Origin: an uncultured bacterium | GTDB taxonomy: Bacteria; Auribacterota; JACPWU01 | Assembly: GCA_964640155.1 (NCBI GenBank) | Contig: CAZXEQ010000008.1 | Span: 30,001 to 62,000, forward strand | Direction of reading: 5' to 3' | DNA: 32,000 bases | In this document: one piece after another, positions 2,984 through 32,000 of the stretch | How the letters are laid out: every line of letters starts with the position of its first letter | Position numbering within the stretch: position 1 is the first letter of the stretch | Made by a program: the position numbers and the translations under genes | Notes under the pieces: generated by a model | Database searches by the model: none | What the model was told of the DNA's origin: nothing | The model's input: only the letters and a program-made list of their open reading frames with translations

Positions 2984-4701
2984 GTTTCGATCTCCTTTAA
3001 AACTTGTTGCAGATTATTTTTCCAGTCCTTCAAACCAACATCTTTTAAACGACCAATTTTTTCACGCAAGGGGGATTCAAGTACCATCTCAATGTTACCG
3101 CCTTGTTTTAATATTTGGGCTGATTTGTGATAAAAAGCGAGCAAAGCTTTTAACATGCCATCTTGCTTTTCCATGGGGCAATATGCATCCATTTCTGAAA
3201 ATGCACTTTGCTGTAAGAAATCTTCCCGAAGCATGGCACCTATTTCAATGACCAAGCGTTCATTATCTTGTAATGCATCGGGCCCGACCAATTGAACAAC
3301 TTCCATGAGTTCGGACTCTCTTTGTAAAAGCTCCATGATTTGTTTACAGTTTTGTGTGAACTCGGCAGAGACATTCTTTTTATACCAGTCTTCCAAATGT
3401 TCTTGATAAAGACTGTAACTCTTTCCCCAGTTAATAGCGGGGAAGTGCCGCCGATTAGCTAAACTTGCATCAAGAGCCCAGAAAGTTCCAACGATTCGTA
3501 ATGTGCTTTGCGTTACAGGTTCAGAAAAATCTCCTCCTGGAGGTGATACGGCTCCTACAACGGTTACAGATCCTACTCGGTTATCTCTTCCCAAACAAAC
3601 TACACGGCCCGCACGTTCATAAAATGCAGCAAGACGAGTTCCTAAATAAGTAGGATAACCTTCTTCGCCAGGCATTTCTTCAAGTCGGGATGAAATTTCA
3701 CGCATAGCCTCAGCCCATCGAGAGCTAGAATCCGCCATTAAAGCAACGTTATAGCCCATATCACGATAATACTCGGCCATCGTGATACCTGTATAAATTG
3801 AAGCTTCGCGTGCAGCTACGGGCATGTTAGAGGTGTTTGCGACGAGAACAGTTCTTTCCATCAAAGGACGACCTGTTTTAGGATCTGTCAATTCTGGAAA
3901 TTCATGAAGCACATCAGCCATTTCATTGCCGCGCTCACCACATCCTACGTAAATAATAATATCTGCACTGGAATATTTAGCTAAAGTTTGCTGAACCACT
4001 GTTTTCCCTGATCCAAAAGGGCCTGGAATTGAAGAATTGCCTCCTAAGGCAAGAGGGAAGAGAGAGTCAAAAATTCTTTGCCCTGTAACAAACAATTCAT
4101 TAGGATCCATTTTCTTTGCATAAGGGCGGCGACTTCGTACGGGCCAACGTTGAACCATGGTCAGTTCTTGTCCTTCAGAAAAGCGACAAATAATTTCATG
4201 AATGGTATAAGAACCTTCTTTGATTATTTCAGAAACTGTTCCGGACATGCCAGGAGGAACGAGAATGCGATGCTTAAATCCACCTTCTTGGGTTTCTCCA
4301 ATAACATCGCCAGCGGCTACTTTATCACCCACTTTTACTTTAGGCGTAAAGGGCCATTTTTTCTCTTTCGAAAGTGCATCAACGAAAATTCCTCTTTCAA
4401 TGAAATCGCCTTGACTGGCTCGAATTACTTCAAGAGGACGCTGAATGCCGTCATAAGTTGTGGAAAGAAGACCGGGTCCAAGTTCTGCCATTAAGGGAAG
4501 ACCTGTATTTTCGATAGGTTCTCCGACAAAGAGACCTGAAGTATCTTCATAAACTTGAATAAAGGCAGTTTCCCCATCCAAGCGAATGATTTCTCCTAAA
4601 AGCCCTAATTTTCCTACCCGGACAATGTCATACATTTTAGCGCCGGTAATTCCGCGGCCAATTACTGCCGGTCCTGCAATACGTGCAATCATGCCACTCA
4701 T
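2950..4701 (-). CDS. atpA: V/A-type ATP synthase subunit A (catalytic)
   Basis: 583 aa. Walker [33 protein letters not shown], and the A-subunit-type extra region between the N-terminal barrel and the P-loop. The ATG is preceded by AAGGAG. Confidence 0.95.
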
Positions 4702-4733
4702 AGTTCAACTCCTTAATTTACTTGGCCCTATTT

Positions 4734-5060
4734 TTATTTCAGTTTTACGTAATATCCAATACAAGAACGAACTAATTCAGAAACGTATTTTTCCTGATCC
4801 TCTTTAGAAATATCTATTTTGGGAAGAGGAAGAACAACAGGAAAAGGTTTTTCCTCAAGATGTTTTTGAAGTTTTTTGTCATTTGTAGGAAACAGGTCTT
4901 CTTCAATCGCAACTAAACTCGGTTCATTTCTATCTATAAAACCTTGCAAAAGATCTTTGGCTTCCTGTGCAGATTTTACTTCCAGCACATTAACCCCAGC
5001 CAGCCGAAAACCGCTTGACCAATCTCCTTTGCTAATCAGACTAAAAGGAACTTTAGACAT
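4734..5060 (-). CDS. atpF: V/A-type ATP synthase subunit F
   Basis: Small protein (SKGDWSSGFRLAGVNVLEVKSAQEAKDLL...LVAIEEDLF) typical of F subunits. The track ORF begins at a TTG (5078). ATG 5060 has GAGGA 8 nt upstream and overlaps the atpC stop (5053-5055) in an ATGTCTAA arrangement, so I prefer 5060. Confidence 0.75.
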   Translation of the reverse strand: MSKVPFSLISKGDWSSGFRLAGVNVLEVKSAQEAKDLLQGFIDRNEPSLVAIEEDLFPTNDKKLQKHLEEKPFPVVLPLPKIDISKEDQEKYVSELVRSCIGYYVKLK

Positions 5061-6108
5061 GAATGAGTTCCTCTTCAATTTTTTCAGAAGGAATGCGCGC
5101 TATTTTTGCTCTTACAATGATACGTAAATTTCGAATTTCAGCAATTTTAAGCCATAAAAATCCAAAAACAACATCAAATCCTAAAGGATCACCTAAAAAA
5201 GCTTTACCGCTTTCACGATATACTTTTTGTTCTAGAAGTCTTTCAACGCATACTTCATCTTTAGCTTTTTGAGACAAGCCTAAAGCGGTGCTAATCATTT
5301 GACAGGCTGCTTCGCTTGTTTCTTGTTGAAGAATGGAGGTATACAGGCTTTTCCCAATATGTGCTCCCTTATTAAGGAAATAGGAAAGCCCTTGCGCGAG
5401 AGGGAGATGTTCTTCTCGAATTCTTAAGGCAGAACGTACATTAAAAAGATCTTTAAGATAAGATAAAAATTCACCTAAAGCTTCTTTTTCTTGTTTAAGC
5501 TTTTTAATTTGCTCATCAGCAATTCTTAAGAATGAATTTTCAAGTGCGCTTTCAAGAATAATTAATTTTTGAGTTTCTTGAAATTTTGAAAGAACTTGAA
5601 ATAAATCCCTACTAAAAGGAAATTTCCAGATATAAAGAATTTCAATCACAGATTTCAGATCAGGTGATTCAGCTAATTCTTTCAGAAGAGGTTCGCTTAA
5701 CTGTCCAACGGGAAGAGTAGAGAACAAAATTTCAGAAGAGGATCGATTCGTGAATTTCCCCCTTAAAACAGTTCGTATCGCTTCCATATCCCAATAGAGA
5801 AGGAGAGTTTCAAATAGTTTACGTGGCTCACCATCTAATAGTTTTAAAATGCTTTGAGTTGTATCAGCTAAATCTCGTCGGAATACTTCTTCAAGAGTAC
5901 TGAGCGAAGGATTTTCCTCTAAAAGGTGAAAATGCTTTGAGAGGTGAGTGTTTTTAAGAATTTCAAGAATTTCATCTAAGTTTTTACATGTTTTGAGATC
6001 TTGAAATTGGGCAAGAGAAATCAGCTCACTTTTCATGCCTCGAATACGGGCGTTGATGTAAGCATAATCTGTTGAGGCGCTAATTGAATAGGAAACCACT
6101 TTACTCAT
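5053..6108 (-). CDS. atpC: V/A-type ATP synthase subunit C (d-type, rotor-stalk connector)
   Basis: 351 aa, all-helical. TDYAYINARIRGMKSELIS near the N-terminus resembles the conserved start of C(d) subunits. Its position between E and F fits the canonical I-K-E-C-F-A-B-D order. Confidence 0.75.
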   Translation of the reverse strand: MSKVVSYSISASTDYAYINARIRGMKSELISLAQFQDLKTCKNLDEILEILKNTHLSKHFHLLEENPSLSTLEEVFRRDLADTTQSILKLLDGEPRKLFETLLLYWDMEAIRTVLRGKFTNRSSSEILFSTLPVGQLSEPLLKELAESPDLKSVIEILYIWKFPFSRDLFQVLSKFQETQKLIILESALENSFLRIADEQIKKLKQEKEALGEFLSYLKDLFNVRSALRIREEHLPLAQGLSYFLNKGAHIGKSLYTSILQQETSEAACQMISTALGLSQKAKDEVCVERLLEQKVYRESGKAFLGDPLGFDVVFGFLWLKIAEIRNLRIIVRAKIARIPSEKIEEELIHV

Positions 6109-6126
6109 TGTTTTTTGTGCTTTTTA

Positions 6127-6711
6127 TTATGATGACGGCCAAAGGTTTTTGACCACCTCCGTCGTTAAATTACTCATCGCTTTTGAGAGCCGATTATCCA
6201 GAGTGTTTTCAATGATCAACTTATGATCCGCTGTTTTTACAACAACACCATTTAAAACCTTTGGATTTGAATGAACATCGGCTTCTTTGTGAAGCTGTTT
6301 AAGTAAGTTTTGAACTAAAGAAACATCCTTTGCAGAAACTTCTATAGTCACTTTACCTGTTAAATTCTTTAAGGATTCTTGAAGCAGGCTTTCAAGAATC
6401 TGTGGATAATCTGATTCTTTTGATGTTTTCTGAATCCGCTCTTGTGCATTTGCATAGACATTGTCAAAGGCTTTTCGTCGAGATTCCAGAAGAAGTTGAT
6501 TGCTTTGAGATTTTGCATTTCCAAGCATTTTGGCTTCTTCCATATCCATCTCTTCTTTAGCCTTTGTCATGATTTCATCACGCGATTTTTCAATTTCAGA
6601 TTTTGTCTGATTTTGAAGAAGCTGAATCTGGGTCTCAGACTCCTCGCGAATTTTGTTTTTTTCTATAGATGCCTCTTTTTCAAGAGCCTCTAGCATTAAT
6701 TCAATAGACAT
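6127..6711 (-). CDS. atpE: V/A-type ATP synthase subunit E (peripheral stalk)
   Basis: 194 aa. It has a long charged N-terminal coiled coil followed by a globular C-terminal domain. It lies between K and C. Confidence 0.75.
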   Translation of the reverse strand: MSIELMLEALEKEASIEKNKIREESETQIQLLQNQTKSEIEKSRDEIMTKAKEEMDMEEAKMLGNAKSQSNQLLLESRRKAFDNVYANAQERIQKTSKESDYPQILESLLQESLKNLTGKVTIEVSAKDVSLVQNLLKQLHKEADVHSNPKVLNGVVVKTADHKLIIENTLDNRLSKAMSNLTTEVVKNLWPSS

Positions 6712-6774
6712 CTCGTCACCTTTTTATTATTCCTTTCAATAACTGAAGGATCGGTACTATTGCATTGCACCTTT

Positions 6775-7110
6775 TTAGAGAACAAATATGATTAAAACTG
6801 CAACGACGAATCCTAAAATAATCATGGTTTCAGGAATGGCTTCTAAAATAATAACAGAACCGACAACTTCTGGTTTTTCAGCCAATGCACCTGCGCCTGC
6901 AGCACCAATTCTGGCTTGAGCGAGTCCTGAAGCCAAAGCAGAAAGGCCTACCGCAATAGCAGCAGCAATTGCCTTAGTTCCAACGTTAGAAGAAGATTTT
7001 TCTGTTTTTACGGCTGTTTCATGCGCAACTTCTGTTTCTGCACTTAAAAAATGAGTTGCACCAAAAAACCACATTCCCAAAACTAAAATTAACCATAAAC
7101 CTTTTTTCAT
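6775..7110 (-). CDS. atpK: V/A-type ATP synthase subunit K (c-ring proteolipid), single hairpin with an N-terminal hydrophobic extension
   Basis: GLSALASGLAQARIGAAGAGALAEKPE...AIPETMIILGFVVAVLIIFVL is a proteolipid hairpin carrying the carboxylate. I prefer ATG 7110 (MKKGLWLILVLG...) because AAGGAG (reverse complement of 7119-7124) lies 8 nt upstream. The track start, GTG 7158, overlaps atpI. Confidence 0.85.
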   Translation of the reverse strand: MKKGLWLILVLGMWFFGATHFLSAETEVAHETAVKTEKSSSNVGTKAIAAAIAVGLSALASGLAQARIGAAGAGALAEKPEVVGSVIILEAIPETMIILGFVVAVLIIFVL

Positions 7111-7144
7111 CTCTTTTTCTCCTTTGTACTGTTTTTGAATGTTG

Positions 7145-9013
7145 TTAACGTTTACCACTTTTGGTTAGGGGTTGATAAAAATCCCCGCCTGCTTCATAAA
7201 ATTTTGTAAAAAATTCAACATAATGCAAACGAACAGATTGAATTGTAGGGCTGAAAGCCAAAATCATGTTAATGATATGAAAAGTGATAGCAATGATAGC
7301 TCCTAATATGACATTTCCTACAAGACTTCCCATCATATTTCCGACAAAGGCCAAATAGGCACTTGCGACTCCTACGGCCATTAAACGAGCGTAAGAAAGC
7401 ATGTTCCCCACAAATGAAAGAAGCTCCATCAGCATCATGGGGCCTTTCATGATAATAAGAAGAGGAATCGATATAACGATCGCAATCACCGATGGAATCT
7501 TAATGACATTGGGGATTTGGCCGGCCAAAACACCGATTAAGGCAAATAGACTAGCCAGGGCCACTAAAATGGCTATCACTTCAATAGTTTCATGATTGTG
7601 ACGATGTCTTATAGATTGAATTAACTTTAAAACGAAACCTAAAGTCACATGCATGACGCCTATTCCAATGGCTAGCAAAAGAAGGGGGACTAGAGAATGC
7701 ATTCTGTTCCATTCGATGGTAGTGCCACCCAAATGCATGGTGAGGGGATGAAGAACGCCTTTTCTTTCAAGCCAGTCGCCAAAACATTCGCCAAATACAA
7801 ATCCAAATATAATGGTATAAGTCGACGCCATAAGGATGATTTCAGAAACACTTTTTATCATTTCATTTTTGGTTTTAAATCTAAGAATAAGTGCTATTAC
7901 AAAGAAAATAGCGCCGTAACCAATGTCACCCATGATCAAACCAAAGAAAATGGGAAAGAAAATAGCAACAAACGGCGTAGGATCAATGCTTCCATATTTG
8001 GGAGGGCGAAGCACTTTTATAAAAAGTTCAAAGGGTCGTGCCCAGCGTTTATTTTGAAGAAGAGTAGGGGCATGATGACAATCTTCCACGCCTAAATAAA
8101 CGGAAGAACCAAAATGTTTTTGAAGTGCTGTTTCCAAACTTTTAATATCTTTTTCAGGATTAAAACCTGTAAGGACAAAAGTTTTTTGAGTTTGTCCAAG
8201 CCCTCGATTCGCTTTTAGCGCATTAATTCGATCTTGAATTCTAAATTTGAATGATTGAAGTGACGAAAGATTCTTATCTGAAATTTCTTGAAGATTTTTT
8301 TCGACCTCTTTAAGAAGATTTGGAATTTCTTGATGTCTTATTTCCATTTGCTTTACGGCATCTGAAAAAGAATAAGAAGCCAATGAAGAGGGTAGTTTGA
8401 TTTCGCTTAGCCCATAGCGATTTAAAAAAGAACGCAATTGAGAACTTTGAGATTTGTAGAAGGCAATTACAAGACCTAAACTATCAGAATCCGTGGATCT
8501 CTTAAAAAGAAGAACTTTCCCAGCGAAAAGCTTTGCCAGTTCTTGTTCCATTTCTTCCAAACGCTTGCTTTCTCTCTTTGAGACAATAAATCCTAAGGTT
8601 TCAAAGTTTTTACTTCCTGAAAGAGGTTCAAGTAAGGGAGCGAGGGTTTTTAAGGTCTCTTGATAAGCTCTAATAATGGAAAGTTCGTCGCTTAGTGTTT
8701 GCTTCTTTTGTCCTAAATCATAAACTTTTTGAGATAAATCATTAGACCATGATTCCCAATCTTTAATTTCTGAATCCAAAGTTGAATGACTTATCTTTTG
8801 AGAAACAGGCAAAAGAGAAGTTAACGTTTCAAGTTTGGCCAGGAGTTTTTCTTGGGCGCTAAGTTCATGCCCTAATTTCTCATCTAAACGCTTTTTCTCA
8901 GTTTTTTCGGATTCTGTAAGATGAACGGTGCCTAATTCTTGGAGGAGATCGATTACAGCCTGTGTCAGAGATTTAGGTCCCGACACAACGATCTTCTTCA
9001 TCTGTGCAATCAT
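7145..9013 (-). CDS. atpI: V/A-type ATP synthase subunit I (a-type stator/ion channel)
   Basis: 622 aa. It has a soluble coiled-coil N-terminal half and a polytopic C-terminal half containing NMLSYARLMAVGVAS, which holds the conserved stator arginine. It overlaps the upstream gene in an ATGA arrangement. Confidence 0.85.
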   Translation of the reverse strand: MIAQMKKIVVSGPKSLTQAVIDLLQELGTVHLTESEKTEKKRLDEKLGHELSAQEKLLAKLETLTSLLPVSQKISHSTLDSEIKDWESWSNDLSQKVYDLGQKKQTLSDELSIIRAYQETLKTLAPLLEPLSGSKNFETLGFIVSKRESKRLEEMEQELAKLFAGKVLLFKRSTDSDSLGLVIAFYKSQSSQLRSFLNRYGLSEIKLPSSLASYSFSDAVKQMEIRHQEIPNLLKEVEKNLQEISDKNLSSLQSFKFRIQDRINALKANRGLGQTQKTFVLTGFNPEKDIKSLETALQKHFGSSVYLGVEDCHHAPTLLQNKRWARPFELFIKVLRPPKYGSIDPTPFVAIFFPIFFGLIMGDIGYGAIFFVIALILRFKTKNEMIKSVSEIILMASTYTIIFGFVFGECFGDWLERKGVLHPLTMHLGGTTIEWNRMHSLVPLLLLAIGIGVMHVTLGFVLKLIQSIRHRHNHETIEVIAILVALASLFALIGVLAGQIPNVIKIPSVIAIVISIPLLIIMKGPMMLMELLSFVGNMLSYARLMAVGVASAYLAFVGNMMGSLVGNVILGAIIAITFHIINMILAFSPTIQSVRLHYVEFFTKFYEAGGDFYQPLTKSGKR

Positions 9014-9408
9014 GAAGAAGCCTCCGACAAAATATCCAGTTTTTCTTTGGATGCTTTTGAGGCGTGTTTTGGAAGCATAGCCGATAGTACAACCTGAATT
9101 GCGTTGTTTGTATTTTGTTGGGCTTGTTTTAGGAGTTTCTCATATTCTTTTTTAGCTTCAGAAAGAATTTCTTCGGTTTGAACAGCTAAAGTTTTTCTTC
9201 TATCTATTTTGTATTTTTCAGCTTCTTCCCGAGCTTTTTTAAGAGATTTTTCAAAGGCTTCTTTTGAAGTCTTGCGTGCTGTTTCAACCTGTTCTAAAGC
9301 TTGAGCTTGTGCTTCTTGAATAGATTTTTCTATTTTTTCTTCTTTTAGTTTTATTTTTTTGAGAAGCTCTATTTCTAAATTGTGATCTGCTTGAGATTTG
9401 TGTTCCAT
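9010..9408 (-). CDS. coiled-coil peripheral-stalk-like protein, first gene of the V-ATPase operon (H/G-like)
   Basis: 132 aa, almost entirely charged heptad-like sequence (KIKLKEEKIEKSIQEAQAQALEQVETARKTSKEAFEKSLKKAREEAEKYK). It is translationally coupled (ATGA) to atpI. The assignment rests on position and composition only. Confidence 0.55.
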   Translation of the reverse strand: MEHKSQADHNLEIELLKKIKLKEEKIEKSIQEAQAQALEQVETARKTSKEAFEKSLKKAREEAEKYKIDRRKTLAVQTEEILSEAKKEYEKLLKQAQQNTNNAIQVVLSAMLPKHASKASKEKLDILSEASS

Positions 9409-9460
9409 AAAGTACCCATGATTAGTGTGCTAGATGATATACCGTGATAAGAGTTCGCAA

Positions 9461-9489
9461 AAAATAGCAAAGATCAGTCAAATGGTCAA
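9461..9489 (-). promoter_or_regulatory. candidate sigma70-type promoter of the V-ATPase operon
   Basis: On the minus strand: TTGACC (9489-9484), a 17-nt spacer, then TATTTT (9466-9461), about 50 nt upstream of ATG 9408. This is a pattern match only. Confidence 0.3.
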
Positions 9490-9752
9490 TGTTTTTTTAG
9501 AAAATTTTTAAGAAGTTATGCTTAGGAAAGCTGTAAGAGAAAGAACTGTATTTAAGCGTACATCAAACGTCCCTTGGGTTGAGGAATGTGCCCCCCCCAA
9601 TTTACTCTTCGAGCAAGCCTGTAAGGCGCGTCGAGAAGCAAGCAGAGCCAGTACTTATTTTTATCCTTCTTCGGGTCGCCTAGATCTGAATACGTATTAT
9701 TTTTTTAACATATTGTTCTGGAGTAAGATGTAAATATATAATAATCCATTTT

Positions 9753-9781
9753 TTGATCTTGCTCCTTAAATATGCTATATT
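9753..9781 (+). promoter_or_regulatory. candidate sigma70-type promoter of the 1105-aa ORF
   Basis: TTGATC (9753-9758), a 17-nt spacer, then TATATT (9776-9781), 55 nt upstream of ATG 9836. This is a pattern match only. Confidence 0.35.
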
Positions 9782-9835
9782 TACGTCACTCTGTCAGTTA
9801 AAAAATTAACGATAAAATATATAAAGCGTAATAAA

Positions 9836-12800
9836 ATGCGATTTTCTCTAAAATTATTCGTAACTTCAATTGTATTATTCGCCTTCTTTTTAAATTCTAT
9901 AAATGTCTCATTTTCAGACACTACGTCTATTCCAACTTCAAAATTTGAAAACTCAAATATTGCTTGTTCTGTTTTTATTCCAGAAGCCTATGGAAGTATT
10001 GATCAATCACATATTGATGGCAAATCTCAAGTAATTTTGATCAAAGATGTGCATTGTCAGTATGAGGCTCAAAAGAATATATCCAAAATACTAGAAACCC
10101 TCATTCGAGATTATAAGGTGGATTTGGTTTGCGTAGAAGGAGCAGAAGGTTTGGTGGATACATCTGCTTTTAGCGCTTATCCTGATTCAAAGATGAGGGA
10201 GAAAGTAGCTGATAAATATCTTAAAAATGGAATTTTGAGTGCCTCTGAAGCGCTCTCAATAGCAAAAGCAAAAGATTCACCTTTTACTATTTATGGGGTT
10301 GAGGAGACAAGATTATATTTAGAAAATTTTACCGGATTTAGAAATACGATTAAGAATAAATCGGAAACAAAAAGATTTATTGAAATCATAAGTTCGGTGA
10401 TTCATTTATTAAAATCAAAAATTTTTAATAAAGGCTTGCTGGAATTAGATGGAAAAGCTCTTAAATATGAAGACGGCAAGCTGGACATAAAGGATTGGGT
10501 TGAATATTTAAGCTCAAATAATAGCTTTGTGAGCAAAAAAGAAAACATTCAGTTTTTTCTTGAAATAAATCGGCTCAGCAAAAAAGTTGATTTTAGAGCT
10601 TTGGAAAAGGAGAGGAAGTTTTTTATTGAGGAACTAGGAAAGAAACTCACTAAAAATGAATTAAAGATCGTCATTGAAAAGACTTTATTTCTTAGGCTTG
10701 GGAAAATATCTGCAGAAAATTATTTTAAATTCATTGATTCTCATTTGCATCATTTCAAAGACTCAGAATCTATTGCAAATCTTAAGCGGTATAGCCAATT
10801 GATTAAACTTCAAGCTAAGCTTGATTTTCAAGTTCTTTCAGACGAAATAGAAGAAGTGGAACAGATGATCCGAAATAATCTTTATCAGAACACCACAGAA
10901 AGTGACTTAGATCAAACTGCTAAAACGGTACGAATCTTAGATAAGCTTTATCAGTTGACGCTCACACGCAAAGAACTGAAGTATTACCATCACAACAAAA
11001 CTCTCTTATCTCTCTCAGCAATTCTAAAATCTGTTTTGACGCTGGCCCAAAAACAGAAAATCAATATTCCTTCTGAACTGAATGACAAAAAATTGATTGA
11101 TAAAGTGAGTCAAGTCAATCAACCCGCGCAATATTTTTATAAGAAGGCATTAGAACGAGACAAGATTCTTGTCAAAAATCTTCTCGAAAAAATGAAAAAG
11201 GATCATGAAGACACTGCTGTAATTGTCGTAGGTGGATTTCATGCGGATGGAATCATTCAAGAATTAAAAGACAGACAGGTTTCATATATTACGATTCTTC
11301 CCAGAATTACCAAGATCGATGAAAAGTCGCCTTATCTCAATGTCATGATGAATCAATTCAAAAATTTCAATCAATCAGTAGGAGAAGTGGGTATAAAAAA
11401 TCTCTCCCCAGTTTTAGCTCTGAGTGAATTGGGTAAAATATTGACGCATTGGGCATCTCGTATAGCTCATGATGAGATAGGACGAAAAAGCATTGAAGAT
11501 CTAGTTGCTCAGTATGGAGGGATTGATCTAAAAAGCATTAAAGAGCTTTTCAAGTTAGCAGGAATAGCTTTTATGTCGACAATGTTTCTAGAAAAAGCTT
11601 TATTGGCAGGAAGTGTCTTAGACTTAAAAAGTGAAATAATGACGATAACCGAATATAGAATTATCAATACTCCTGACGATCTTACAGCATCATTTTTAAT
11701 AGAAGCATTAAAAATAGCAAATATCTTGAGACAAAGAAAAGGATATAGAAGTTTGGATATTGAAAGTGTGATACAGAAAAGACGCGAGAAGATAATTGCT
11801 AGATCTAAAGTGAGAGACATAAAAACGCCAATCGATTTTTCGAAAGATGCAGCGGCAGATCAGATTTTAGAGGCTTTGAATAGCTTATGGGCACAGCATA
11901 TTTATCGAGGGATAAATATGAACGTGGGAGACGCATGGATTCTCTTTGTGGGAGAGTTTTTTGAAGGATATTCTTTGGAAGCAAAATTCTATTTACAGAG
12001 AAAGATAGGAGATGATCAGAAAAAGAAAGATTCCTTAGCAGAATTGTTATCTGAAGTTTCAAAAAGAAAAAACATTCAAGATTGCTATACAGCAGCTTAT
12101 ATGTGGGCGATCGTGCTTTCCCAGGCTTTTGAAGTAGGAGTTTTGATTGAAGAAGATGAATATACATTACATATCCACAGTGATATTCCCTCAGAAGTAA
12201 AGATGGGTTTTACCAGTAGTACTACTGATAGACGTACAGGTATTGCCATTAGAACAGAGGGAAGAGAAGCATTATTAGATGGAGACTTTTCAGGCATTAT
12301 ATTTGGCCTAGAAGACGCAGGAGTTAAAAATAATTGGATGAAAGGAGCAAAGGTTTTTCGAGATGGATGGAGAAAAGATGGAATAGTATTCCCATACATA
12401 GAATGTCAACCAGAATCAGTAGCAGAAAACAAAAAAAGAGCTTCTATCGATAAAAGACCCTCCGATCAAAATCCGCTTGTGGGAAAATCTGAAATAACAC
12501 CAGTTGCTGTTTCTAAGCCATCGCCAAAGGTTCAAAGCACGTCTTGGAACAAAATATTTGATGCTTTCATATATGTTTTCATTGCAGTAGTGGGGATAGT
12601 ATTTGTTGTTATCTTAGTTTTAGTTCTTTACATTCTTCTTAAGCCTGCTGGAAATATGTCTTCAATAAGTCGTTTTTCCGAGTTTCCGTCTTCAGCGTTG
12701 GCGAGCGTTTTAAAAGGAGCATCAAAAGAAAGCAAGACACCGGCTACTATAGGAGATTCAAGGGTTTATTTGTTTGGGGAACAGAATAGAGATGAACTTG

Positions 12801-13153
12801 TGCAAGATATACAGAGAACAGCTAAACAGATTTTGGGGGCAAATGTAATTATTGATGGTAAGAAGGTTTTTAAACTTTTGAAAGAAGATAAAATTAATAA
12901 ACAAATTATGTTATCTGATGTTATAGAAGCAATGCCGGAGGGGATGAACGCTCAAGCAGTCGTCGCGTTGGGTCTTCAGCTAAGTCAATTAGCTTCGCTA
13001 CAAAAAGTGGTGGGCCAAGATGCATTAAACGAAGGCGGGAGCGTTATCTGTTCGATTTTAATGGAAGTCGTGAAGGGAGCGAGAAGAGGTGTTGAGACTA
13101 AAGATCTTGAAGTCTTATCCTCTCAGCATAGATACTGTGACGTTGCGGCATAA
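9836..13153 (+). CDS. giant exported/membrane protein of unknown function with a TraB/GumN/Tiki-like motif set (paralog 1)
   Basis: 1105-aa uninterrupted ORF. N-terminal signal/anchor MRFSLKLFVTSIVLFAFFLNSINVSFS. Motifs: ILIKDVH(73)CQYEAQ, VDLVCVE(101)GAEG, VIVVGGFH(469)ADGI. One strong internal TM segment, FDAFIYVFIAVVGIVFVVILVLVLYILL (about 12557-12645), is followed by a tail of about 170 aa. The N-terminal ~500 aa are colinear with the ORF at 28394. Confidence 0.85.
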   Translation: MRFSLKLFVTSIVLFAFFLNSINVSFSDTTSIPTSKFENSNIACSVFIPEAYGSIDQSHIDGKSQVILIKDVHCQYEAQKNISKILETLIRDYKVDLVCVEGAEGLVDTSAFSAYPDSKMREKVADKYLKNGILSASEALSIAKAKDSPFTIYGVEETRLYLENFTGFRNTIKNKSETKRFIEIISSVIHLLKSKIFNKGLLELDGKALKYEDGKLDIKDWVEYLSSNNSFVSKKENIQFFLEINRLSKKVDFRALEKERKFFIEELGKKLTKNELKIVIEKTLFLRLGKISAENYFKFIDSHLHHFKDSESIANLKRYSQLIKLQAKLDFQVLSDEIEEVEQMIRNNLYQNTTESDLDQTAKTVRILDKLYQLTLTRKELKYYHHNKTLLSLSAILKSVLTLAQKQKINIPSELNDKKLIDKVSQVNQPAQYFYKKALERDKILVKNLLEKMKKDHEDTAVIVVGGFHADGIIQELKDRQVSYITILPRITKIDEKSPYLNVMMNQFKNFNQSVGEVGIKNLSPVLALSELGKILTHWASRIAHDEIGRKSIEDLVAQYGGIDLKSIKELFKLAGIAFMSTMFLEKALLAGSVLDLKSEIMTITEYRIINTPDDLTASFLIEALKIANILRQRKGYRSLDIESVIQKRREKIIARSKVRDIKTPIDFSKDAAADQILEALNSLWAQHIYRGINMNVGDAWILFVGEFFEGYSLEAKFYLQRKIGDDQKKKDSLAELLSEVSKRKNIQDCYTAAYMWAIVLSQAFEVGVLIEEDEYTLHIHSDIPSEVKMGFTSSTTDRRTGIAIRTEGREALLDGDFSGIIFGLEDAGVKNNWMKGAKVFRDGWRKDGIVFPYIECQPESVAENKKRASIDKRPSDQNPLVGKSEITPVAVSKPSPKVQSTSWNKIFDAFIYVFIAVVGIVFVVILVLVLYILLKPAGNMSSISRFSEFPSSALASVLKGASKESKTPATIGDSRVYLFGEQNRDELVQDIQRTAKQILGANVIIDGKKVFKLLKEDKINKQIMLSDVIEAMPEGMNAQAVVALGLQLSQLASLQKVVGQDALNEGGSVICSILMEVVKGARRGVETKDLEVLSSQHRYCDVAA

Positions 13154-13383: not shown

Positions 13384-16300
13384 ATGCTTCGGTGGATTTT
13401 AAGCAAGACAATTGGAACTAAAAATGAAAGAGAAGTGCGGCGTTTGTTTAAAAGAGTTGCCGCAATTAATGAAAAAGAGATTGAGTATCAAAGTTTAAGT
13501 GAAGAAGCTTTAAAAGCTAAGACGACTGAATTTCGAGATCGGCTTTCTAAAGGCGAAACACTTGATGATCTTTTGGTTGAAGCCTTTGCAGTGGTTAAAA
13601 ATGCTTGCCGCAGAATGGTAGGCAAATCTTGGAATGTGGTAGGTCATCCTTTGCGTTGGGAAATGATTCCTTTTGATGTGCAACTCATTGGAGGAATGGT
13701 TTTACATCAGGGAAAGATTGCTGAAATGGCAACAGGAGAAGGGAAAACACTTGTTGCGACTCTACCTGTTTATTTGAATGCTTTGGCCAATCCGGTTCAT
13801 TTGGTGACGGTCAATGACTATTTGGCAGAGCGTGATTGTGAATGGATGGGTGAGATTTATAAATTTTTAGGTTTGAGTGTTGCATTTCTTCAAAACAGCA
13901 TGGATTTCGAAGACAGAAAAAGAGTGTACGCTTGCGATATTGTTTATGGAACGAACAGTGAATTTGGCTTTGATTATCTAAGAGATAACAGCATGGCGAC
14001 ACGCGTTGAGGAGCAAGTTCAACGCGGTCATTTTTACGCTATTATTGATGAAGTGGATAGCATTTTGATTGATGAAGCACGTACGCCACTTATTATTTCG
14101 GGTCCTTCCACAGTTTCAACGCATCGCTATGATGAATTAAAACCTCTGGTGCAAAATTTATTTCAGAAACAAACTCTTTTATGTAATCGCTTGCTTAAAG
14201 AAGCTCGCGACGTTATCGAAAAAGAAACCTCATCGAAAGAGGAAAGAGAGCAGGCGCAACTTAAACTTTTTCAAGTGCTTAAGGGAACCCCAAAGAATCG
14301 ACAGCTTTTAAAAATGATGGAAGAGCCCTCCAATCGAACCATCTTGGACAAAATAGAACTTCAAATGATGAGTGAGCTTCGTAAGCAGGAGAGATATGAG
14401 GCGATTGAAGAGCTCTATTTTAGCATTGATGAAAAGGGTCATGAAATTGATCTGACAGAAAAAGGAAGATCTCTTATAGCGCCTAAAGATCCGCATGAGT
14501 TTACTCTGCCAGATTTAGGAAGTATTTTTCAGGAAATCGATTTAAATGAAGCTCTAACCGAAGAAGAAAAACAGCGACAAAAAGACAAGATTCAAAATGA
14601 TTATAACGATAAGGGCGAAAGACTTCATAATTTAAGTCAGCTTTTGCGTGCTTACTCTCTTTTTGAAAAGGATGTTGATTATGTCGTCCAAGATAATAAG
14701 GTTTTAATTGTCGATGAATTTACAGGACGCTTAATGCCTGGACGACGTTATAGCGATGGTCTTCATCAAGCGCTTGAAGCTAAAGAAGGTGTAAAAATTG
14801 AACGTGAAACTCAAACGTTTGCAACAATTACGATTCAGAATTATTTCAGAATGTATAAAAAATTATCAGGCATGACTGGTACTGCAGAAACTGAAGCCAA
14901 CGAGTTTTTTCAAATTTATAAATTGTCTGTTGTTGTGATTCCTACGAACGATAAAATTCGTCGCATGGACTATCACGATGTGATTTATAAAACGCGACGA
15001 GAAAAATACAATGCAATGGTGAATGAGATAGCTCAATTTCATGAGGCCAAGCATCCTGTTCTGGTTGGAACGGTTTCAGTCGAAGCGTCGGAAGTTTTAA
15101 GTCGACTTCTTAAGAGACGAGGGATTGTTCACGAAGTTTTGAATGCGCGTCAGCATCAAAGAGAAGCTGAGATTGTCTCCAGAGCAGGCCAGCCTGGGGC
15201 AGTGACCATTGCAACAAATATGGCGGGCCGTGGAACTGATATTAAACTTGCCCCCAGTGTTGTTAAAAGCACCAATTGTGCACTTATAGCGCCTAAATCT
15301 AGCAAAGAACCTTGTCCTCATTTGGAAGAGCTTCAATGTAAAAAGAAAGTTCCATGTGGTCTTCATGTCATTGGCTCAGAACGTCACGAAGCTCGCCGTA
15401 TTGATCGTCAGCTCAGAGGACGAAGTGGACGTCAAGGAGATGCAGGATCTTCACGTTTTTATATTTCTCTGGAAGATGATTTGATGCGACTTTTTGGATC
15501 CGATCGTATTGCTCGGGTGATGGATCGTATGGGAATTGAAGAGGGGCAAGATTTGACTCATCCCTTGTTAACCCGGTCTATAGAAACAGCGCAAAAACGT
15601 GTGGAGCAACGCAATTTTGGAGTTCGTAAACATACTCTTGAATTTGACGATGTTATGAATAAACAGCGTCAGGTAATTTATGATTTTCGTAATCATGTCT
15701 TAAGAGGCGAACGCCTCAAAGACGACATTCTCGAAATTATTACAGAAGTTGTAACTCTTAAAGCCAATGAGTTTTTTTCGGAAAGTGGTGAGATTGATTT
15801 AGCTGGATTTTGTAAATGGATAGATTCGACGTTTCCTCTTCATTTAAGTCAGAGAATGAACTCGTATGAGGAAAAAGATAAAGAAGAAGTCCTAGAACTT
15901 CTTTTAAAAGAAATTAATGGATTATACGAGTTCAAAGAAAAAATTGAAGAAGACCGCATGCCTCGCCTTGAACGCATCGTTCTTCTAAATGTAATTGATC
16001 GTTTATGGCGAGAGCATCTCTATAATATGGATTCTCTGCGGGAAGGGGTTTATCTGAGGGCTTATGGTCAGAAGGATCCCTTGGTAGAGTATCGTGCAGA
16101 AGGTTATACGATGTTTTCAGAGCTGATGGGGAATATAAAGTCCGAAATTTGCAGAGAAATTTTCAGAATTACCGCAACTCCAGAATATTTTGAGAAAGCT
16201 ATGAAGGCTTTGCCCACGCAATTGATTCACAAACAGGTCGAAGGTTTTCAAGTGGCCGGACCTCAACCTGCTCAAGCGCAAGAAACTGAGCAGAATATAG

Positions 16301-16428
16301 AAACCAACGAAGAAACATCTCATCTAGCGTCGAAGATCCCTATGCATCGTGAAGCTCCAAAAGTAGGCCGTAATGATGTTTGTCCTTGCGGAAGTGGAAA
16401 GAAATATAAAAAATGTTGTGGCAAGTAA
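13384..16428 (+). CDS. secA: preprotein translocase ATPase SecA
   Basis: 1014 aa. Motifs: [14 protein letters not shown] (Walker A), [21 protein letters not shown] (DEAD-like), [12 protein letters not shown], and the C-terminal zinc motif [14 protein letters not shown]. Confidence 0.97.
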
Positions 16429-16468: not shown

Positions 16469-18034
16469 ATGGAGAAAGTTGATTTAACACAAAGAAAATC
16501 TTTCGTTTTTAGGTTATTCTCATTTCTCTCTATTATTTTCTTTATTCTTGCTCTTCGTGGAACTTTAGGCGGTCTTACCATTTGGTTTTCGTTCATTCCT
16601 CTGTTTTATTTGCTTGATCAAATCCCAAGTCCCATACGTGCATTTCATTGGTCTTGGTGTGTTGGACTGGGCTCTTATCTTTATTTAGCTTTTTGGCTTT
16701 CTCAAGTAACCACTGTTGGTTATTTTCTTCTTTGCTTTATGCTTGCGATGTATTTTGGATTCTTCGGGTTTTTTTATAAAAAGTGGATGCTTCAAGAAAG
16801 TTTTTGGGCTATTCCCATTTTGGCATGCTTGTGGACGTCTTTAGAATATTTAAGAGGGTGCGGGCCTTTGGCTTTTCCCTGGTTTGTTCTAGGGTATTCC
16901 CAGCATGCACACTTATCTTTTTTACAGATGATAAGTTGGAGTGGAAGTTTTGGTCTGTCCTTTTTTATTGTTTGGATGAATCGGGCGCTGTATGAATTTT
17001 TCTTTTATTATAAAAAATCATTAAAAAACCGTTTATTATTTTTGGGAATAGGATGTATTTTTCTTGTGGGCGTTTATAGTTCTGGACTTGTGCGATTACA
17101 ACAACGATCATTATATAATCAAGAGTCTCCTGCTTTGTCTGTTGCGCTCATTCAGGCCAATATTCCTCAAGATGAAAAATGGGATCCTGTTCAGGCTAAT
17201 TTTATTTTAAAAAAATATGAGCGTATGACTCTGCAAATCGCATCTCAAAATCCCGCGCTTATTTTATGGCCAGAAACTGCTATGCCGGGTGATTTTAAGA
17301 AGAGCCGAAAACTTCAAGAAAAAATTAAATTTCTTGCCCTTGAAACAAACTCTTATATGTGTTTGGGGGGAAATGATGATCTTTTGGATACCTCAGGTGT
17401 TATTACAAATGCAGCCTATTTGATTAATCCCGAAGGAAGTCTTATAGATCAATATGATAAAATTCATCTTGTGCCTTTTGGAGAGTACGTTCCCTTGAGA
17501 AAATGGATGCCTTGGCTAGGGAGTTTTACACTTGGTGATATTGATTTTTCACCGGGGAAAACTTTCAAGGTCTTTACCAACGGTTTTGACCCATTTTCTG
17601 TTGTAATATGTTTTGAAGATATTTTGCCTCATCACGTTCGTTCATTTGTTAAATCTGGAGCCCATTGGCTTGTTAATTTAAGTAATGATGGATGGTTCGG
17701 TCGTTCTAAAGCAGCCGAGGAACATTTTAATTTGGCAAGATTCTCTGCCATTGCGAATGGAGTAAGCCTAGTTCGATCTACTAACACAGGGGTTTCCGGT
17801 ATTATTTCCCCATTTGGAGAAATACAAAAAAGAATAGAAGATTCATTCGGAAACAATATAGAAGTAGAAGGAAGTAAGGTGTATTCCGTTCAGACTAAGA
17901 AAGTTAAAACCTTTTATCAGGCCTATGGAGACCTTTTTTCTCAAATTTGCTTAGGAATTGTTATTATATTTGGATTACTCAAATTCATTTTTAGAAAGAC
18001 TATGAAACATAAGGAGATTGAATATGCTGCCTGA
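16469..18034 (+). CDS. lnt: apolipoprotein N-acyltransferase
   Basis: 521 aa. It has a polytopic N-terminal half followed by a CN-hydrolase domain with ILWPETA (Glu), YDKIHLVPFGEYVP (Lys) and SVVICFEDI (Cys), plus a terminal TM segment. Confidence 0.9.
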   Translation: MEKVDLTQRKSFVFRLFSFLSIIFFILALRGTLGGLTIWFSFIPLFYLLDQIPSPIRAFHWSWCVGLGSYLYLAFWLSQVTTVGYFLLCFMLAMYFGFFGFFYKKWMLQESFWAIPILACLWTSLEYLRGCGPLAFPWFVLGYSQHAHLSFLQMISWSGSFGLSFFIVWMNRALYEFFFYYKKSLKNRLLFLGIGCIFLVGVYSSGLVRLQQRSLYNQESPALSVALIQANIPQDEKWDPVQANFILKKYERMTLQIASQNPALILWPETAMPGDFKKSRKLQEKIKFLALETNSYMCLGGNDDLLDTSGVITNAAYLINPEGSLIDQYDKIHLVPFGEYVPLRKWMPWLGSFTLGDIDFSPGKTFKVFTNGFDPFSVVICFEDILPHHVRSFVKSGAHWLVNLSNDGWFGRSKAAEEHFNLARFSAIANGVSLVRSTNTGVSGIISPFGEIQKRIEDSFGNNIEVEGSKVYSVQTKKVKTFYQAYGDLFSQICLGIVIIFGLLKFIFRKTMKHKEIEYAA

Positions 18035-28393: not shown

Positions 28394-31300
28394 ATGGAGG
28401 ATAACAATTTGTTACGGAGAATTATTGTTGGCTTATTAATTTTTTCTTTAAGCCTGGATATCACTGGTATTAGTGTAAAAAGGCAACTTCAGGCTCAAGT
28501 CCTCCCTCTGTCCAATCCTCAAAAAGCAGGAACTTCATTAGGAATTGATTCTTTAGATCTTAAAGATATGCAGCTAGAAAAAACCTTTAAAGGATCTCTG
28601 CCTTTTCAAATTATTCTTATTCGAGATATTCATGCCGAACCAGAAGCCCAATTCAAGATTGCGGATTCACTCAAAGAAATATGTAAACAATTATCTGCTA
28701 AAGTATTTATTGAGGGGGCCTCTGGGGTTGTTCGTCCTTTATTATATCAATCTTTTCCCGATAAGAATATTCGGCGTAAAGCTAGTAAGACCTTTGTTGA
28801 AAAAGGTTATTTAACTGGGGCTGAATTTGCAGCTATTGAAATGGGTTTACAGAGTAATTTAAAAATTTACGGTGTTGAGAATATTAATCTTTACATCAAG
28901 AATTTAAAGGCTTTTTGGAAAACTCGCCAATTACACAAAAAAAATGAAACTATGATTGAGAGAATAGAAGTTTCTTTAAAAGAACTTAAAGACAAGTGCT
29001 TCTCTTTAGAACTCCAAAAACTTGATTTTATGGAGAAATCTCTAAATGATAAAAATTTTAATTTAAAAGAAATCATCGGCTCATTAGAACCGCTTTTATT
29101 CAAAGAAGGATGGGTTTGGGATAAGTGGAAAAATCTTGCTCAAGTGTATGAGATTTTAAAAACAGGAGAGAGCATAAATCAAAACGCTGTCCAGGAGGAG
29201 TTACAACTTTTATTTAAAGAACTTGAGAAAAAACTTCCCAAAAATCAATTGCAACAGCTTGTGGAAAGTGGACTGACTTATCGGTTAGGAAGGATTTCTG
29301 CATTTGAGTATTTTGAGGATTTAGAAAAAATAGTAAAAACTCAAATGTCTTTAGAAATCTTTGACCGGAAATATCCTCATTTAGAAAAATGGAAACAATT
29401 AAGCTTAAAACAGGAGAAATTTAATTTTTCAAAAGCACAGGAAGAACTTCAAGATCTTATAAACGCTCTCTTTGAAAAGATATCCACACGAGAGGGTGTA
29501 ATAGAATTGAGGAATTTGGATAAGGTTTGGTTTTTGTTTCAGAAGTTGGTTTTACTTAAGTTGTCGAAAGGAGATTTTACAGAAATAAAAAAATGGAATT
29601 TGGAAGAGAATTTTGATCAGTGGCATCATCAACTCATAAAATTAAACGATGTTTCTGTGGTTTTATCTTTGTTCGATATTCAGAGTTTTAAAGAGCTTTT
29701 GCAAACGGCTGAGAGTTTTTATGGGTATGCACAAAAAAGAGATCAGGTGTTAATCAATAATACATTGAAGAGATTGTCTAAGTCCGATGAGGTAGGAGTT
29801 TTAATTACGGGAGGTTTTCATACAGATGGAATTCAACAAGAGCTGGAAAAAGAAAAAATTTCTTATGTTACATGGACGCCACAAATTAGAAATTTTTCCA
29901 AAGAGAATTTTTATGAAAAAATTATGATGGATAGAAGTTTTAATCTTGAAGAGGCCTTTTCCTCAAAACGTTTTATTTTGAGGGATAATTCTGATGAACT
30001 TCGACGCATGCTAGGAATTCCTGTGGATAAAGTATTAAAAGTACTAAACCAGAAAGCATATACACAATTAGATCAAGAAATCTTAGAAGGTTTATTAAGA
30101 GAAGCTGATGAAACCAGAATCGGAACAATCAATGAAACAGTTTCTTCTTGGATGAGAGAAAGGAGACTTGCTCCTGACTGTGATGCTCTAGAAGTAGAAC
30201 GTGTAGCTCTTGCATCTGAAAGATATGCACCTGCAGAGGTTTTTTTATCATTGACCCGCTTAGATAGCAGCAGTCATTGGGAAAGAATTTTAGCTAAGCG
30301 TGTTGTTCGTGAAGCTTTTGGTGGAAGCAAAAAATATGAAGGGCTTGTCTATTTAACTGAAACGATGATGAAGAAAAGCCATCAAGCAACTCAAGCAATT
30401 GTAATAAAAGTCATTCGGAAAATGATGGATGAAGTTCAGATTTTTTTAAAAGAACAAAAAAAGGAAAAAGCCGAAGAAAAAGTGCTGATGGCTTTAGACC
30501 TTCTTATCTATTTTCTTCAGCGCTCTAGAAGTTATTTTGTGCCTTCTTATCTTCTTAAAGAAGTTTTATTGAGAATTAAATCTGATCCAATGAAAGATTT
30601 AGGCCCGGCTTGTTTTGAAAAAATAGCGCCCATGATTGTAGAGATGGAGAGATATTTGCCGAGTGCGTTTTGGATGAGAGAAGCAGTTTGGATGAATCAC
30701 ATTGAACTTATCAAAGCTATAATGAGGCAAGAACAAAAGGCATTGCTGGATGAGAGAGTAGCGTTGTACGAAAGGGCTGGGCTATATCTTTCTGGTTTTT
30801 TAAATGAGATCAAAAAGCTTGCACAAGAGGGTCATCTCAAAGAAGCCTTAGCGCTTTTTGATCTTGTTTTTTTAGAAAATGATTTTAAAGAAGGTGACTT
30901 TTTAAAAGAAATTCAAAAAGTAAAATCTTTTTTAGAAGCTAGAAAACGTTTGCCTGATTTAAGAATGCAGCTATTAGATGCTTCAAAAATTTTTAAAGAA
31001 GGATTAATGATAAAAGATTTTTCAGAAAGTACAGTTACTTTTGAAGAGGTGTTGAGTTTATATCATTCTTCTCAAGTTCTCATGAGGGAGGCTCAATTAG
31101 ATTCTTTTGAAATAAAATTAGGGAATCGTTCTTTTATTTATACTCCTGTGATGCTCGAGGATAGAATTAGCTTGCTCGAGAACTTGATCCATTTTGAAAA
31201 TGCAATTGTAAAGTGGGATGGAACTCAAGTAGAGCATTTTATAGGAGTTCTAAAGAAATGTTTTGAAAAAACGAAACTTTCAGATGAAGAACGTTTAGGA

Positions 31301-32000
31301 TTTGAAAGATTATATGCAGAATATCAACTCATAGCAGAGATTCGCTTGCAAATTATGCAAGGTGATCTTCCCCGGGCGATCAGTCGTATATCATCGCTTC
31401 AAAACGCTGCACAAGCGCTGCCTCTGGCGCAGTTTTTTTATGAGCACTTGTTTGTTCATTTAAAACAGAAATTAACGGATGCTGTTCAAAATTCTGAAGC
31501 TGTTGGGAAAGCATTATTAGAACTTGATGAGCTATTTGCAATCAGATTGCCGGGTCCAGTACCCGCTTCTCTTTATGCTGATATGAGCCTTTTGGAAGAA
31601 CGCTTAAAATCAATCAAGAAGGCTTATAAACTTTATCAGGAAACACTTGAATTAATTGAAAGAGAAGAATTTGAGGGAGTGGAGCAAAATGCTGAGCGGA
31701 TTTCAAGAATATCAACGATCTGGGCCAAGATACTACGTGCAAAATTGGTTGATGAAAAAAATATCTTCAATGCGAAGATTCAAGAGAGATTAGATGAGTA
31801 TTGGAAGAAGGGGGAAGAGGCTTTTAAGAGAGTTTTAACGGTAGAAACAGAGCGGAAGTTTGACAAAGAAGCTTTGCAAACAGCTTTGGAAAATTATTCT
31901 CTTTTACTAAAAGAGAACTCTAAAAATCGGTCTTTAAAAATTGAAAGATCTAAGATTGTTTTGAAGCGTAATTTGATTCAAGCGTTTTTAAAAATTGATG
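28394..32000 (+). CDS. giant exported protein of unknown function, paralog 2 of the 9836 ORF (3' end beyond the window)
   Basis: Hand translation stays open from 28394 to the window end (more than 1200 codons). The track shows no competing long ORF in any frame here. N-terminus: MEDNNLLRRIIVGLLIFSLSLDITGISV. Motifs: ILIRDIH(80)AEPEAQ, KVFIE(107)GASG, VLITGGFH(476)TDGI. After that comes a long helical, repeat-like region. The true start may be TTG 28409, because GGAGG (28396-28400) lies 8 nt upstream of it. Confidence 0.85.
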   Translation, partial: MEDNNLLRRIIVGLLIFSLSLDITGISVKRQLQAQVLPLSNPQKAGTSLGIDSLDLKDMQLEKTFKGSLPFQIILIRDIHAEPEAQFKIADSLKEICKQLSAKVFIEGASGVVRPLLYQSFPDKNIRRKASKTFVEKGYLTGAEFAAIEMGLQSNLKIYGVENINLYIKNLKAFWKTRQLHKKNETMIERIEVSLKELKDKCFSLELQKLDFMEKSLNDKNFNLKEIIGSLEPLLFKEGWVWDKWKNLAQVYEILKTGESINQNAVQEELQLLFKELEKKLPKNQLQQLVESGLTYRLGRISAFEYFEDLEKIVKTQMSLEIFDRKYPHLEKWKQLSLKQEKFNFSKAQEELQDLINALFEKISTREGVIELRNLDKVWFLFQKLVLLKLSKGDFTEIKKWNLEENFDQWHHQLIKLNDVSVVLSLFDIQSFKELLQTAESFYGYAQKRDQVLINNTLKRLSKSDEVGVLITGGFHTDGIQQELEKEKISYVTWTPQIRNFSKENFYEKIMMDRSFNLEEAFSSKRFILRDNSDELRRMLGIPVDKVLKVLNQKAYTQLDQEILEGLLREADETRIGTINETVSSWMRERRLAPDCDALEVERVALASERYAPAEVFLSLTRLDSSSHWERILAKRVVREAFGGSKKYEGLVYLTETMMKKSHQATQAIVIKVIRKMMDEVQIFLKEQKKEKAEEKVLMALDLLIYFLQRSRSYFVPSYLLKEVLLRIKSDPMKDLGPACFEKIAPMIVEMERYLPSAFWMREAVWMNHIELIKAIMRQEQKALLDERVALYERAGLYLSGFLNEIKKLAQEGHLKEALALFDLVFLENDFKEGDFLKEIQKVKSFLEARKRLPDLRMQLLDASKIFKEGLMIKDFSESTVTFEEVLSLYHSSQVLMREAQLDSFEIKLGNRSFIYTPVMLEDRISLLENLIHFENAIVKWDGTQVEHFIGVLKKCFEKTKLSDEERLGFERLYAEYQLIAEIRLQIMQGDLPRAISRISSLQNAAQALPLAQFFYEHLFVHLKQKLTDAVQNSEAVGKALLELDELFAIRLPGPVPASLYADMSLLEERLKSIKKAYKLYQETLELIEREEFEGVEQNAERISRISTIWAKILRAKLVDEKNIFNAKIQERLDEYWKKGEEAFKRVLTVETERKFDKEALQTALENYSLLLKENSKNRSLKIERSKIVLKRNLIQAFLKID

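Follow-up and report, generated by a model that had tools for sequence, protein, structure and literature searches.

The window considered here is the whole stretch of 32,000 nucleotides (nt) analysed from an uncultured bacterium (GTDB lineage Bacteria; Auribacterota; JACPWU01), namely positions 30,001 to 62,000 of the forward strand of contig CAZXEQ010000008.1 in GenBank assembly GCA_964640155.1. Two open reading frames (ORFs) on its plus strand, ORF A and ORF B, encode long proteins that begin with the same type of module, termed the head, each followed by a C-terminal extension, termed the tail. ORF A (9836..13153; 1105 amino acids, aa) is identical to database protein P0005. ORF B (28394..32000) runs past the end of the window, and its visible 1202 aa are the start of the 3658-aa protein P0006, which an exact look-up places on the same NCBI contig as ORF A. 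The explanation that we lean towards is that the module is an exported, probably catalytic relative of TIKI-fold proteins and erythromycin esterases (Ere) that acts as the head of variable long tails.

The heads of ORF A and ORF B are paralogs. Alignment of residues 65-514 of ORF A with residues 72-521 of ORF B by BLASTP gives 28% identity with E=1e-43, which is far beyond chance and, over some 450 aa, bears out the colinear N-terminal module proposed in a preliminary description of the window. Every motif that was quoted there is present at the assigned residues of both proteins. In ORF A the motifs are D71-V-H73, E101, G154-V-E156, R441-D442 and GGFH469, and in ORF B they are D78-I-H80, E107, G160-V-E162, R449-D450 and GGFH476; the two histidines lie 396 residues apart in ORF A and ORF B alike. 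Other parts of the description need adjustment. "Giant" suits ORF B, at 3658 aa, and ORF A, at 1105 aa, less well, and the range first given for the module (9836-11350, or aa 1-505 of ORF A) shifts to roughly aa 45-527 (nt 9968..11416, plus strand) when its limits are set by conservation. The head of ORF B spans aa 52-534 (nt 28547..29995, plus strand), as placed by BLASTP and the motifs.

Anatomy and distribution of the head module

Conservation was measured on 151 family representatives and 80 genomic loci. Residues H73, E101, G102, G154, Y161, R441, G466, G467 and H469 (ORF A numbering) are invariant or at least 97% conserved, and D71 is conserved at 99%; the His73, Glu101 and His469 of the preliminary description thus hold among relatives. 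At a level of at least 96% the set also takes in G53, N81, G105, G132, E138, E156, F434, Y435, D442, N448, G472, P489 and Y500. Conservation ends past about residue 527 of ORF A.

The AlphaFold model of ORF A residues 1-535 (m7fd7b78fae4c) has a predicted local distance difference test score (pLDDT) of 78.3 and a predicted template modelling score of 0.68, and is of low confidence just in the signal peptide and beyond residue 507; the model of the ORF B head (m7877170bb41f) reaches a pLDDT of 67. Predicted strands of ORF A at residues 53-59 (an N-terminal hairpin), 65-71, 97-100, 151-155, 460-466 and 483-489 alternate with helices. As modelled, the core of the module would be a small alpha/beta domain with five strands in TIKI-sheet order plus the N-terminal hairpin strand. 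H73, E101, E156 and H469 each directly follow a predicted strand, and residues in such positions lie at the usual active-site edge of a parallel sheet. All of the motifs are on the plus strand: D71-V-H73 (10046..10054) at the end of strand 65-71, E101 (10136..10138) after strand 97-100 and 28 residues past H73, G154-V-E156 (10295..10303) at the end of strand 151-155, R441-D442 (11156..11161) 28 residues before H469, and G466-G-F-H469 (11231..11242) after strand 460-466.

After its third strand the core is predicted to be interrupted by a conserved, fixed-length helical subdomain of about 285 residues, seen in the model as an all-helical insertion or lid (aa 158-455, 10307..11200, plus strand). 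In 83 of 148 members the two histidines are exactly 396 residues apart, the full range being 379-460, and this near-fixed length implies a folded subdomain and not a linker. Within the insertion there are weak Pfam matches to DUF1722, found in 31 of 80 members and exceeding the curated cut-off in one, and to the PAH domain of ZNF598 in 54 of 80 (best 1.4e-6); by sequence these similarities are hints of small helical bundles. Against PDB sequences the family profiles produced just EF-hand-like alignments of the helical part, which are weak (E 0.06-0.3), together with one match due to chance.

When 1.84 billion cluster representatives were searched exhaustively with the family profile, the head module was found in 9431 protein clusters at E<=1e-3, of which 6212 are at E<=1e-30. 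Length and position were tabulated for the best 150 of the 9431 matches. The module is N-terminal in 150 of these 150, the match beginning within the first ~110 residues, and often heads proteins of 2000-7700 aa; the median length is 2259 aa, with fragments of about 320 aa at the short end and a protein of 7727 aa at the long end. In genomes, 362 relatives were detected by a scan; nearly all come from metagenome-assembled genomes of Candidatus Omnitrophota, a few have other labels, and several paralogs per genome are common. A word-index homolog search retrieved just 4 relatives, even with an 80-sequence profile, against 9431 by the exhaustive search. Named relatives are annotated "hypothetical protein", and neither Pfam (2025) nor NCBIfam (2026) holds a model for the module, as searched with both ORFs and, for Pfam, also with 80 members. 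The architecture that the preliminary description singled out as unusual therefore occurs well beyond this window, as the usual head of the proteins of a very large Omnitrophota family. The traits of the Omnitrophota long-protein class, namely length, an N-terminal signal peptide or transmembrane segment and sparse domains, are found in ORF B and in the family at large.

Probable export, tails and split genes

ORF A is laid out as a signal peptide, the head module, a unique 370-aa region, one transmembrane helix and a C-terminal tail of about 170 aa. The putative Sec-type signal peptide (9836..9916, plus strand), recognised directly in the sequence, reads MRFSLK-LFVTSIVLFAFFL-NSINVSFS, and a net-positive n-region followed by a hydrophobic core is present in 138 of 144 family members. 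The hydrophobic h-region is 10-15 residues long, and in many members it is followed by small-x-small or AxA-like sites (e.g., AFA/A and YA/AP, the slash marking the site). A single strongly hydrophobic transmembrane helix falls within 12512..12640 (plus strand; Kyte-Doolittle peak at aa 916-934), and the same type of scan finds a later transmembrane segment in just 18 of 151 members. Tiki proteins are composed of a signal peptide, a TIKI domain and a single transmembrane helix, and ORF A, with its signal peptide, head, spacer, transmembrane helix and short tail, resembles that layout. Judged by these N-termini, export of the head via Sec is likely.

The tails themselves are diverse. For the ORF A tail (aa 520-1105) no homolog was found among 150 family representatives, in Pfam or in the PDB, and the part of ORF B beyond its head likewise has no detectable relatives, Pfam domain or PDB match. 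Across the family, at least one partner with tail-tail similarity exists for 123 of 135 tails, and some relatives' tails carry UDPGP, PGM, NTP-transferase, CofD, PFK, metallo-beta-lactamase, HEAT or HATPase_c domains. The closest relative of the ORF A head, at 39% identity, is P0001 (L001:6131-8944), which has a C-terminal HATPase_c domain (GHKL ATPase) with no transmembrane segment between; a small EF-hand-like gene lies upstream of it on the opposite strand.

Head and tail are not always fused. A short, head-only ORF of about 440-585 aa is present at 16 of 82 loci, and for 8 of these 16 a long same-strand ORF begins 3-33 nt past the stop codon of the head, often after a GGAG-like sequence; such adjacent head and tail genes are apparently translationally coupled. 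The split tails each have their own signal-peptide-like N-terminus. Genes that are fused in some genomes and split in others are classically taken to be functionally linked, and head and tail follow this pattern. Five split tails were scanned, and all five contain fused central-metabolism enzymes: TIM, PGK, enolase and FBPase (L071:3775-12237), TIM and GAPDH (L081:11497-16515), DeoC aldolase (L073:1934-5863), GlpX-type FBPase (L062:9936-13211), and glutamine synthetase and SIS (L040:11436-20489). Each of these tails starts 3-6 nt after its head-only gene.

In five split tails (L071, L073, L081, L057 and L075) the motif D-x-LRP[QK]-x-A-[AE]-SS lies within the first ~60 aa, right past the predicted signal-peptide cleavage site. 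A role of LRPxAAxSS as a repeated polyprotein cleavage site was considered and rejected, as each of these tails has a single copy of the motif and fused proteins have none. It may instead mark a place where the head docks or clips; Tiki trims the mature N-terminus of Wnt, which provides a loose analogy. At 35 loci another long same-strand ORF ends 110-470 bp upstream, and several of these flanking ORFs themselves bear the head module, so that the genes often occur in tandem arrays. In two cases in-frame TAG stops split an otherwise fused head-tail gene (L011:10001-11600 and L057:10001-11400). At L011 the ORF downstream of the TAG opens with the conserved post-module linker, and the interruptions at both loci could be due to pseudogene formation, sequencing error or readthrough.

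Many tails carry enzymes with cytoplasmic substrates (PGK, GAPDH, enolase, PFK, glutamine synthetase, GHKL ATPase), and this weighs against export. One could suppose that the N-terminal segment is a membrane tether, leaving head and tail in the cytoplasm with the head as an Ere-like esterase or peptidase of a membrane-bound multi-enzyme assembly. Ere enzymes are cytoplasmic, and such an assembly would make sense both of the PGK, GAPDH, enolase, TIM, FBPase, PFK, PGM, UDPGP, glutamine synthetase and HATPase_c found in tails and of the usual lack of a transmembrane helix between head and tail. We regard this arrangement as unlikely, however, given that the canonical n-regions, h-regions and small-x-small sites predict an N-in/C-out topology with cleavage, and that split tails bear signal peptides of their own. 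A published topology survey of Omnitrophota long proteins likewise predicts signal peptides (10.64898/2026.06.07.730766), and the same 2026 preprint raises the puzzle of ATP-, NAD- and sugar-phosphate-dependent enzymes that lie behind them.

Probable relation to the TIKI, Ere and ChaN proteins

The TIKI core is a five-strand parallel beta-sheet with helices at its flanks (PMC6254334). When the ORF A model was compared by Foldseek with a library of 350,542 PDB chains, ranks 1, 3, 4, 5 and 6 were taken by the erythromycin-esterase-family structures 3b55, 6xcq, 6xcs, 2rad_B and 2rad_A (E 0.04-0.37, probability up to 0.72), and HopBA1, a TIKI-fold effector, appeared at rank 41. The poorer, independent ORF B model again retrieved 3b55, 2qgm and 2rad, amid coiled-coil noise.

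The catalytic set of EreC is E47, H50, E78, R261 and H289 (PMC7979712), and these map one-to-one onto D71, H73, E101, R441 and H469 of ORF A; G134-I-D136 of EreC is the counterpart of G154-V-E156. The EreC and Bcr sequences were fetched from the PDB with an EreB-like probe; just the retrieved database sequences served as evidence, and residue numbering was verified on the recovered EreC sequence. The pattern of an acidic residue one or two positions before a strand-end His, a Glu at +28 and a late second His is present in the head, with Asp in place of the first Glu. The transition-state Arg, which in EreC (R261) lies in the helix ahead of the second-His strand, is matched by the invariant R441. 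Of 148 members, 142 have a spacing of 28 residues from His to Glu and 145 have one of 28 residues from Arg to His, both the same as in EreC. Other TIKI-fold proteins have a comparable site: in RRSP, H3902, E3930, H4030 and E3900 (two positions ahead of H3902) make up a 2His/2Glu set with 28-residue His-Glu spacing, and Bcr135 has H85 and E113 at that same spacing (PMC6254334). In the best local alignment by hhalign of the family profile with a 95-sequence Ere profile, H73 falls on the catalytic His and E101 on the catalytic Glu.

Pfam provides hints at the other end of the module. ChaN (PF04187), of the Tiki superfamily, has weak matches in 27 of 80 members, each of them over the RD...GGFH segment; the family consensus aligns near the C-terminal end of the Pfam model with E=0.004. 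DUF5694 (PF18950) is matched by one member at 2.3e-5.

A number of results weigh against the relationship. Over both models the Foldseek E-values run from 0.04 to 0.9, all above 0.01, with template modelling scores of about 0.2, and are sub-threshold. The best PF04187 score, 17.6 bits, falls short of the 27.7 required, with just the C-terminal 45-80 residues aligned, and the DUF5694 match (25.3 against 27.5 bits) is also below its curated threshold. The hhalign comparison with the Ere profile has a non-significant probability of 2-4%; with an Ere hidden Markov model, real cores score no better than shuffled decoys; and in-silico removal of the helical insertion did not raise Pfam or PDB profile scores. 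No Pfam match to PF05139 (erythromycin esterase) was found in the ORFs or in 80 members, nor to PF01963 (TraB/PrgY/GumN) in any of the 80. YbaP of E. coli (TraB family) gave an hhalign probability of 0.4% against the family profile, which, with a single sequence, is a weak test. The head module is not, then, a member of the Ere, ChaN or TraB Pfam family as such.

With these scores in view, we still judge it probable, and with more assurance than any other part of the interpretation, that the module belongs to the TIKI/Ere/ChaN/TraB superfamily as a new, unannotated family; the assignment is made because individually weak lines of evidence converge and are joined by the five-residue functional match. 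The TIKI/TraB-type reading given in the preliminary description is supported by the Ere-fold neighbours, the invariant His/Glu/His and the PF04187 hints, and must be read with every similarity score being sub-threshold. No other known family claims the module in Pfam, NCBIfam or PDB sequence searches. It was also said there that known members are compact single domains, which does not apply to Ere: these enzymes have about 125 residues at the same position (EreC D136 to R261), and the insertion of the head module is therefore an expansion of a known site and not a new split. The earlier interpretation is essentially right with three corrections, in that the similarity is sub-threshold, the insertion is a known one expanded, and the head is common to a family.

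The fold could be shared without the enzymatic activity. In that case the head would bind a ligand or serve for docking, and would anchor or organise long proteins at the envelope, a role suggested by haem-binding ChaN being the only Pfam family matched repeatedly, by the peptide binding to which the weak PAH- and DUF1722-like similarity of the helical subdomain points, and by the C1/C2 region of PMT, which has a TIKI fold without the catalytic motif or activity (PMC6254334). Yet the five EreC-catalytic residues are near-invariant, at the same spacings, across hundreds of members that share 25-40% identity; such conservation is typical of active enzymes and absent in inactive TIKI members such as PMT (PMC6254334), and a non-enzymatic head seems improbable to us. 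Equally improbable is an unrelated alpha/beta-plus-helical domain whose TIKI/Ere motif likeness is convergent or coincidental, a proposal that takes its strength from the lack of any statistically significant sequence or structure match, template modelling scores near 0.2 and the coiled-coil proteins that rank best for ORF B, but that must account for almost all Ere-family chains of the library being in the top 6 for the ORF A model and returning with the ORF B model, for the five-for-five residue correspondence with its identical 28/28 spacing, and for independent ChaN and DUF5694 matches on a colinear C-terminal motif.

By analogy with characterised TIKI-fold enzymes we favour, with some reserve, a catalytically active head. 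Its active site would form after Sec export. As in EreC and RRSP, H73, oriented by D71, might serve as general base, and E101 and H469, together with H73, would position and deprotonate a water molecule; the water would attack an ester or peptide carbonyl, with R441 stabilising the oxyanion and the helical subdomain acting as a substrate-recognition lid. The head may then work on or with the tail protein after export, e.g., by clipping, maturation or release. Action on the tail is proposed because head and tail are genetically coupled, as fused or as adjacent genes with their own signal peptides; it is a doubtful element of the scheme, and processing of the tail is a guess. Seven head-only ORFs have no long partner gene nearby, which speaks against action on the tail as the whole story. 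Less probable again is that the head is a dedicated maturation enzyme of Sec-exported mega-proteins, working in cis when fused and in trans when encoded by an adjacent gene. On that scheme a TIKI-type protease or esterase would dock on, clip or release the tail, including its fused glycolytic and gluconeogenic enzymes; if true, Omnitrophota would have a bacterial system of their own for the processing of heads and tails, which would help to show how their giant proteins are deployed.

Genomic setting and known systems

The window is ordinary bacterial chromosome. A V/A-type ATPase operon occupies 548-9013 on the minus strand, and the plus strand carries ORF A, SecA, Lnt, RF2, peroxiredoxin, hom, thrC, aspartokinase, a LeuA-like gene and ORF B, with a minus-strand radical-SAM gene (20677-21999) among them. 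No conserved synteny with the window neighbours (V-type ATPase, SecA, Lnt and others) was found in 82 related loci, and promoter and terminator scans around ORF A gave matches at chance level. Two ORFs are without a Pfam match, one of 132 aa (9010-9408, minus strand) that is read in the direction of the operon and follows the gene for subunit I of the V-type ATPase, and one of 324 aa (19693-20667, plus strand). The prfB gene for RF2 (18024-19149) carries, at 18089-18095, the CTT TGA C site of the classic programmed +1 frameshift; ATG 18024 opens its short upstream frame, and 18139-19149, the ORF in the list, corresponds to the downstream frame. In SecA (13384-16428, 1014 aa) the DEAD-like motor match covers residues 7-508 against a 290-position Pfam profile, which implies insertions beyond the usual preprotein cross-linking domain. 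GC skew turns from negative to positive at about 8000-10000, where gene orientation flips across a 427-bp AT-rich spacer (9409-9835). A replication origin at this strand switch near 9.4 kb is unlikely, with DnaA boxes at chance level, and the change in skew most likely reflects gene-strand bias and not an origin.

Among known systems the erythromycin esterases (EreA/B/C and Bcr135/136; PF05139) are the nearest, being the best-ranked structural neighbours with the same five residues in the same order; past the third core strand they have the same G-x-acidic motif and, at that very point, an insertion. They differ in the size of the insertion (about 125 residues, against about 285 in the head module) and in the first acid, which in the head is Asp and lies two instead of three residues ahead of the His. 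Ere proteins are also free-standing enzymes of about 400 aa, whereas the head module comes with a signal peptide and long C-terminal extensions, and there is no significant sequence-profile similarity between the two. ChaN and DUF5694 are the only recurrent Pfam matches, and share a colinear RD...GGFH near the C-terminal end of the domain, but leave the N-terminal half of the head unmatched and score under their cut-offs. RRSP (the DUF5 domain of MARTX toxins), Tiki1/2 and TraB/PrgY are TIKI-fold hydrolases with a 2His/2Glu-type site and 28-residue His-Glu spacing; like the head module they are part of, or joined to, large proteins that are secreted or sit in the membrane, and appended helical domains recruit their substrates (PMC6254334). 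They have no detectable sequence similarity to the head, however, and RRSP is an internal effector domain and not an N-terminal head.

The Omnitrophota are uncultured, ultra-small and probably host-dependent bacteria, and the long and giant proteins that are their hallmark have been described as poorly conserved and nearly without recognisable domains. A head that is conserved in more than 9000 protein clusters and catalytic-looking would be the first common denominator of this class of proteins, and a profile built from the family alignment would put a name to thousands of "hypothetical proteins". It also sharpens an existing puzzle, in that polypeptides with glycolytic enzymes follow Sec signal peptides and are linked genetically to a TIKI-like head. 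The N-terminal regions of Omnitrophota giant proteins have been said to "generally lack identifiable domains" apart from C39 and S8 peptidases (10.1101/2023.11.21.568195), and a Nature Microbiology survey describes giant Omnitrophota ORFs with few annotated domains. A term search of the giant-protein papers found no mention of Tiki, TraB or esterase (10.1101/2023.11.21.568195; 10.64898/2026.06.07.730766). The family described here shares with the long and giant proteins of those reports (West-Roberts 2023; Seymour 2023; the 2026 preprint) their phylum, their length class and their N-terminal signal peptides, as well as tails that carry HATPase_c, PGM, sugar-metabolism and other "cytoplasmic" enzymes.

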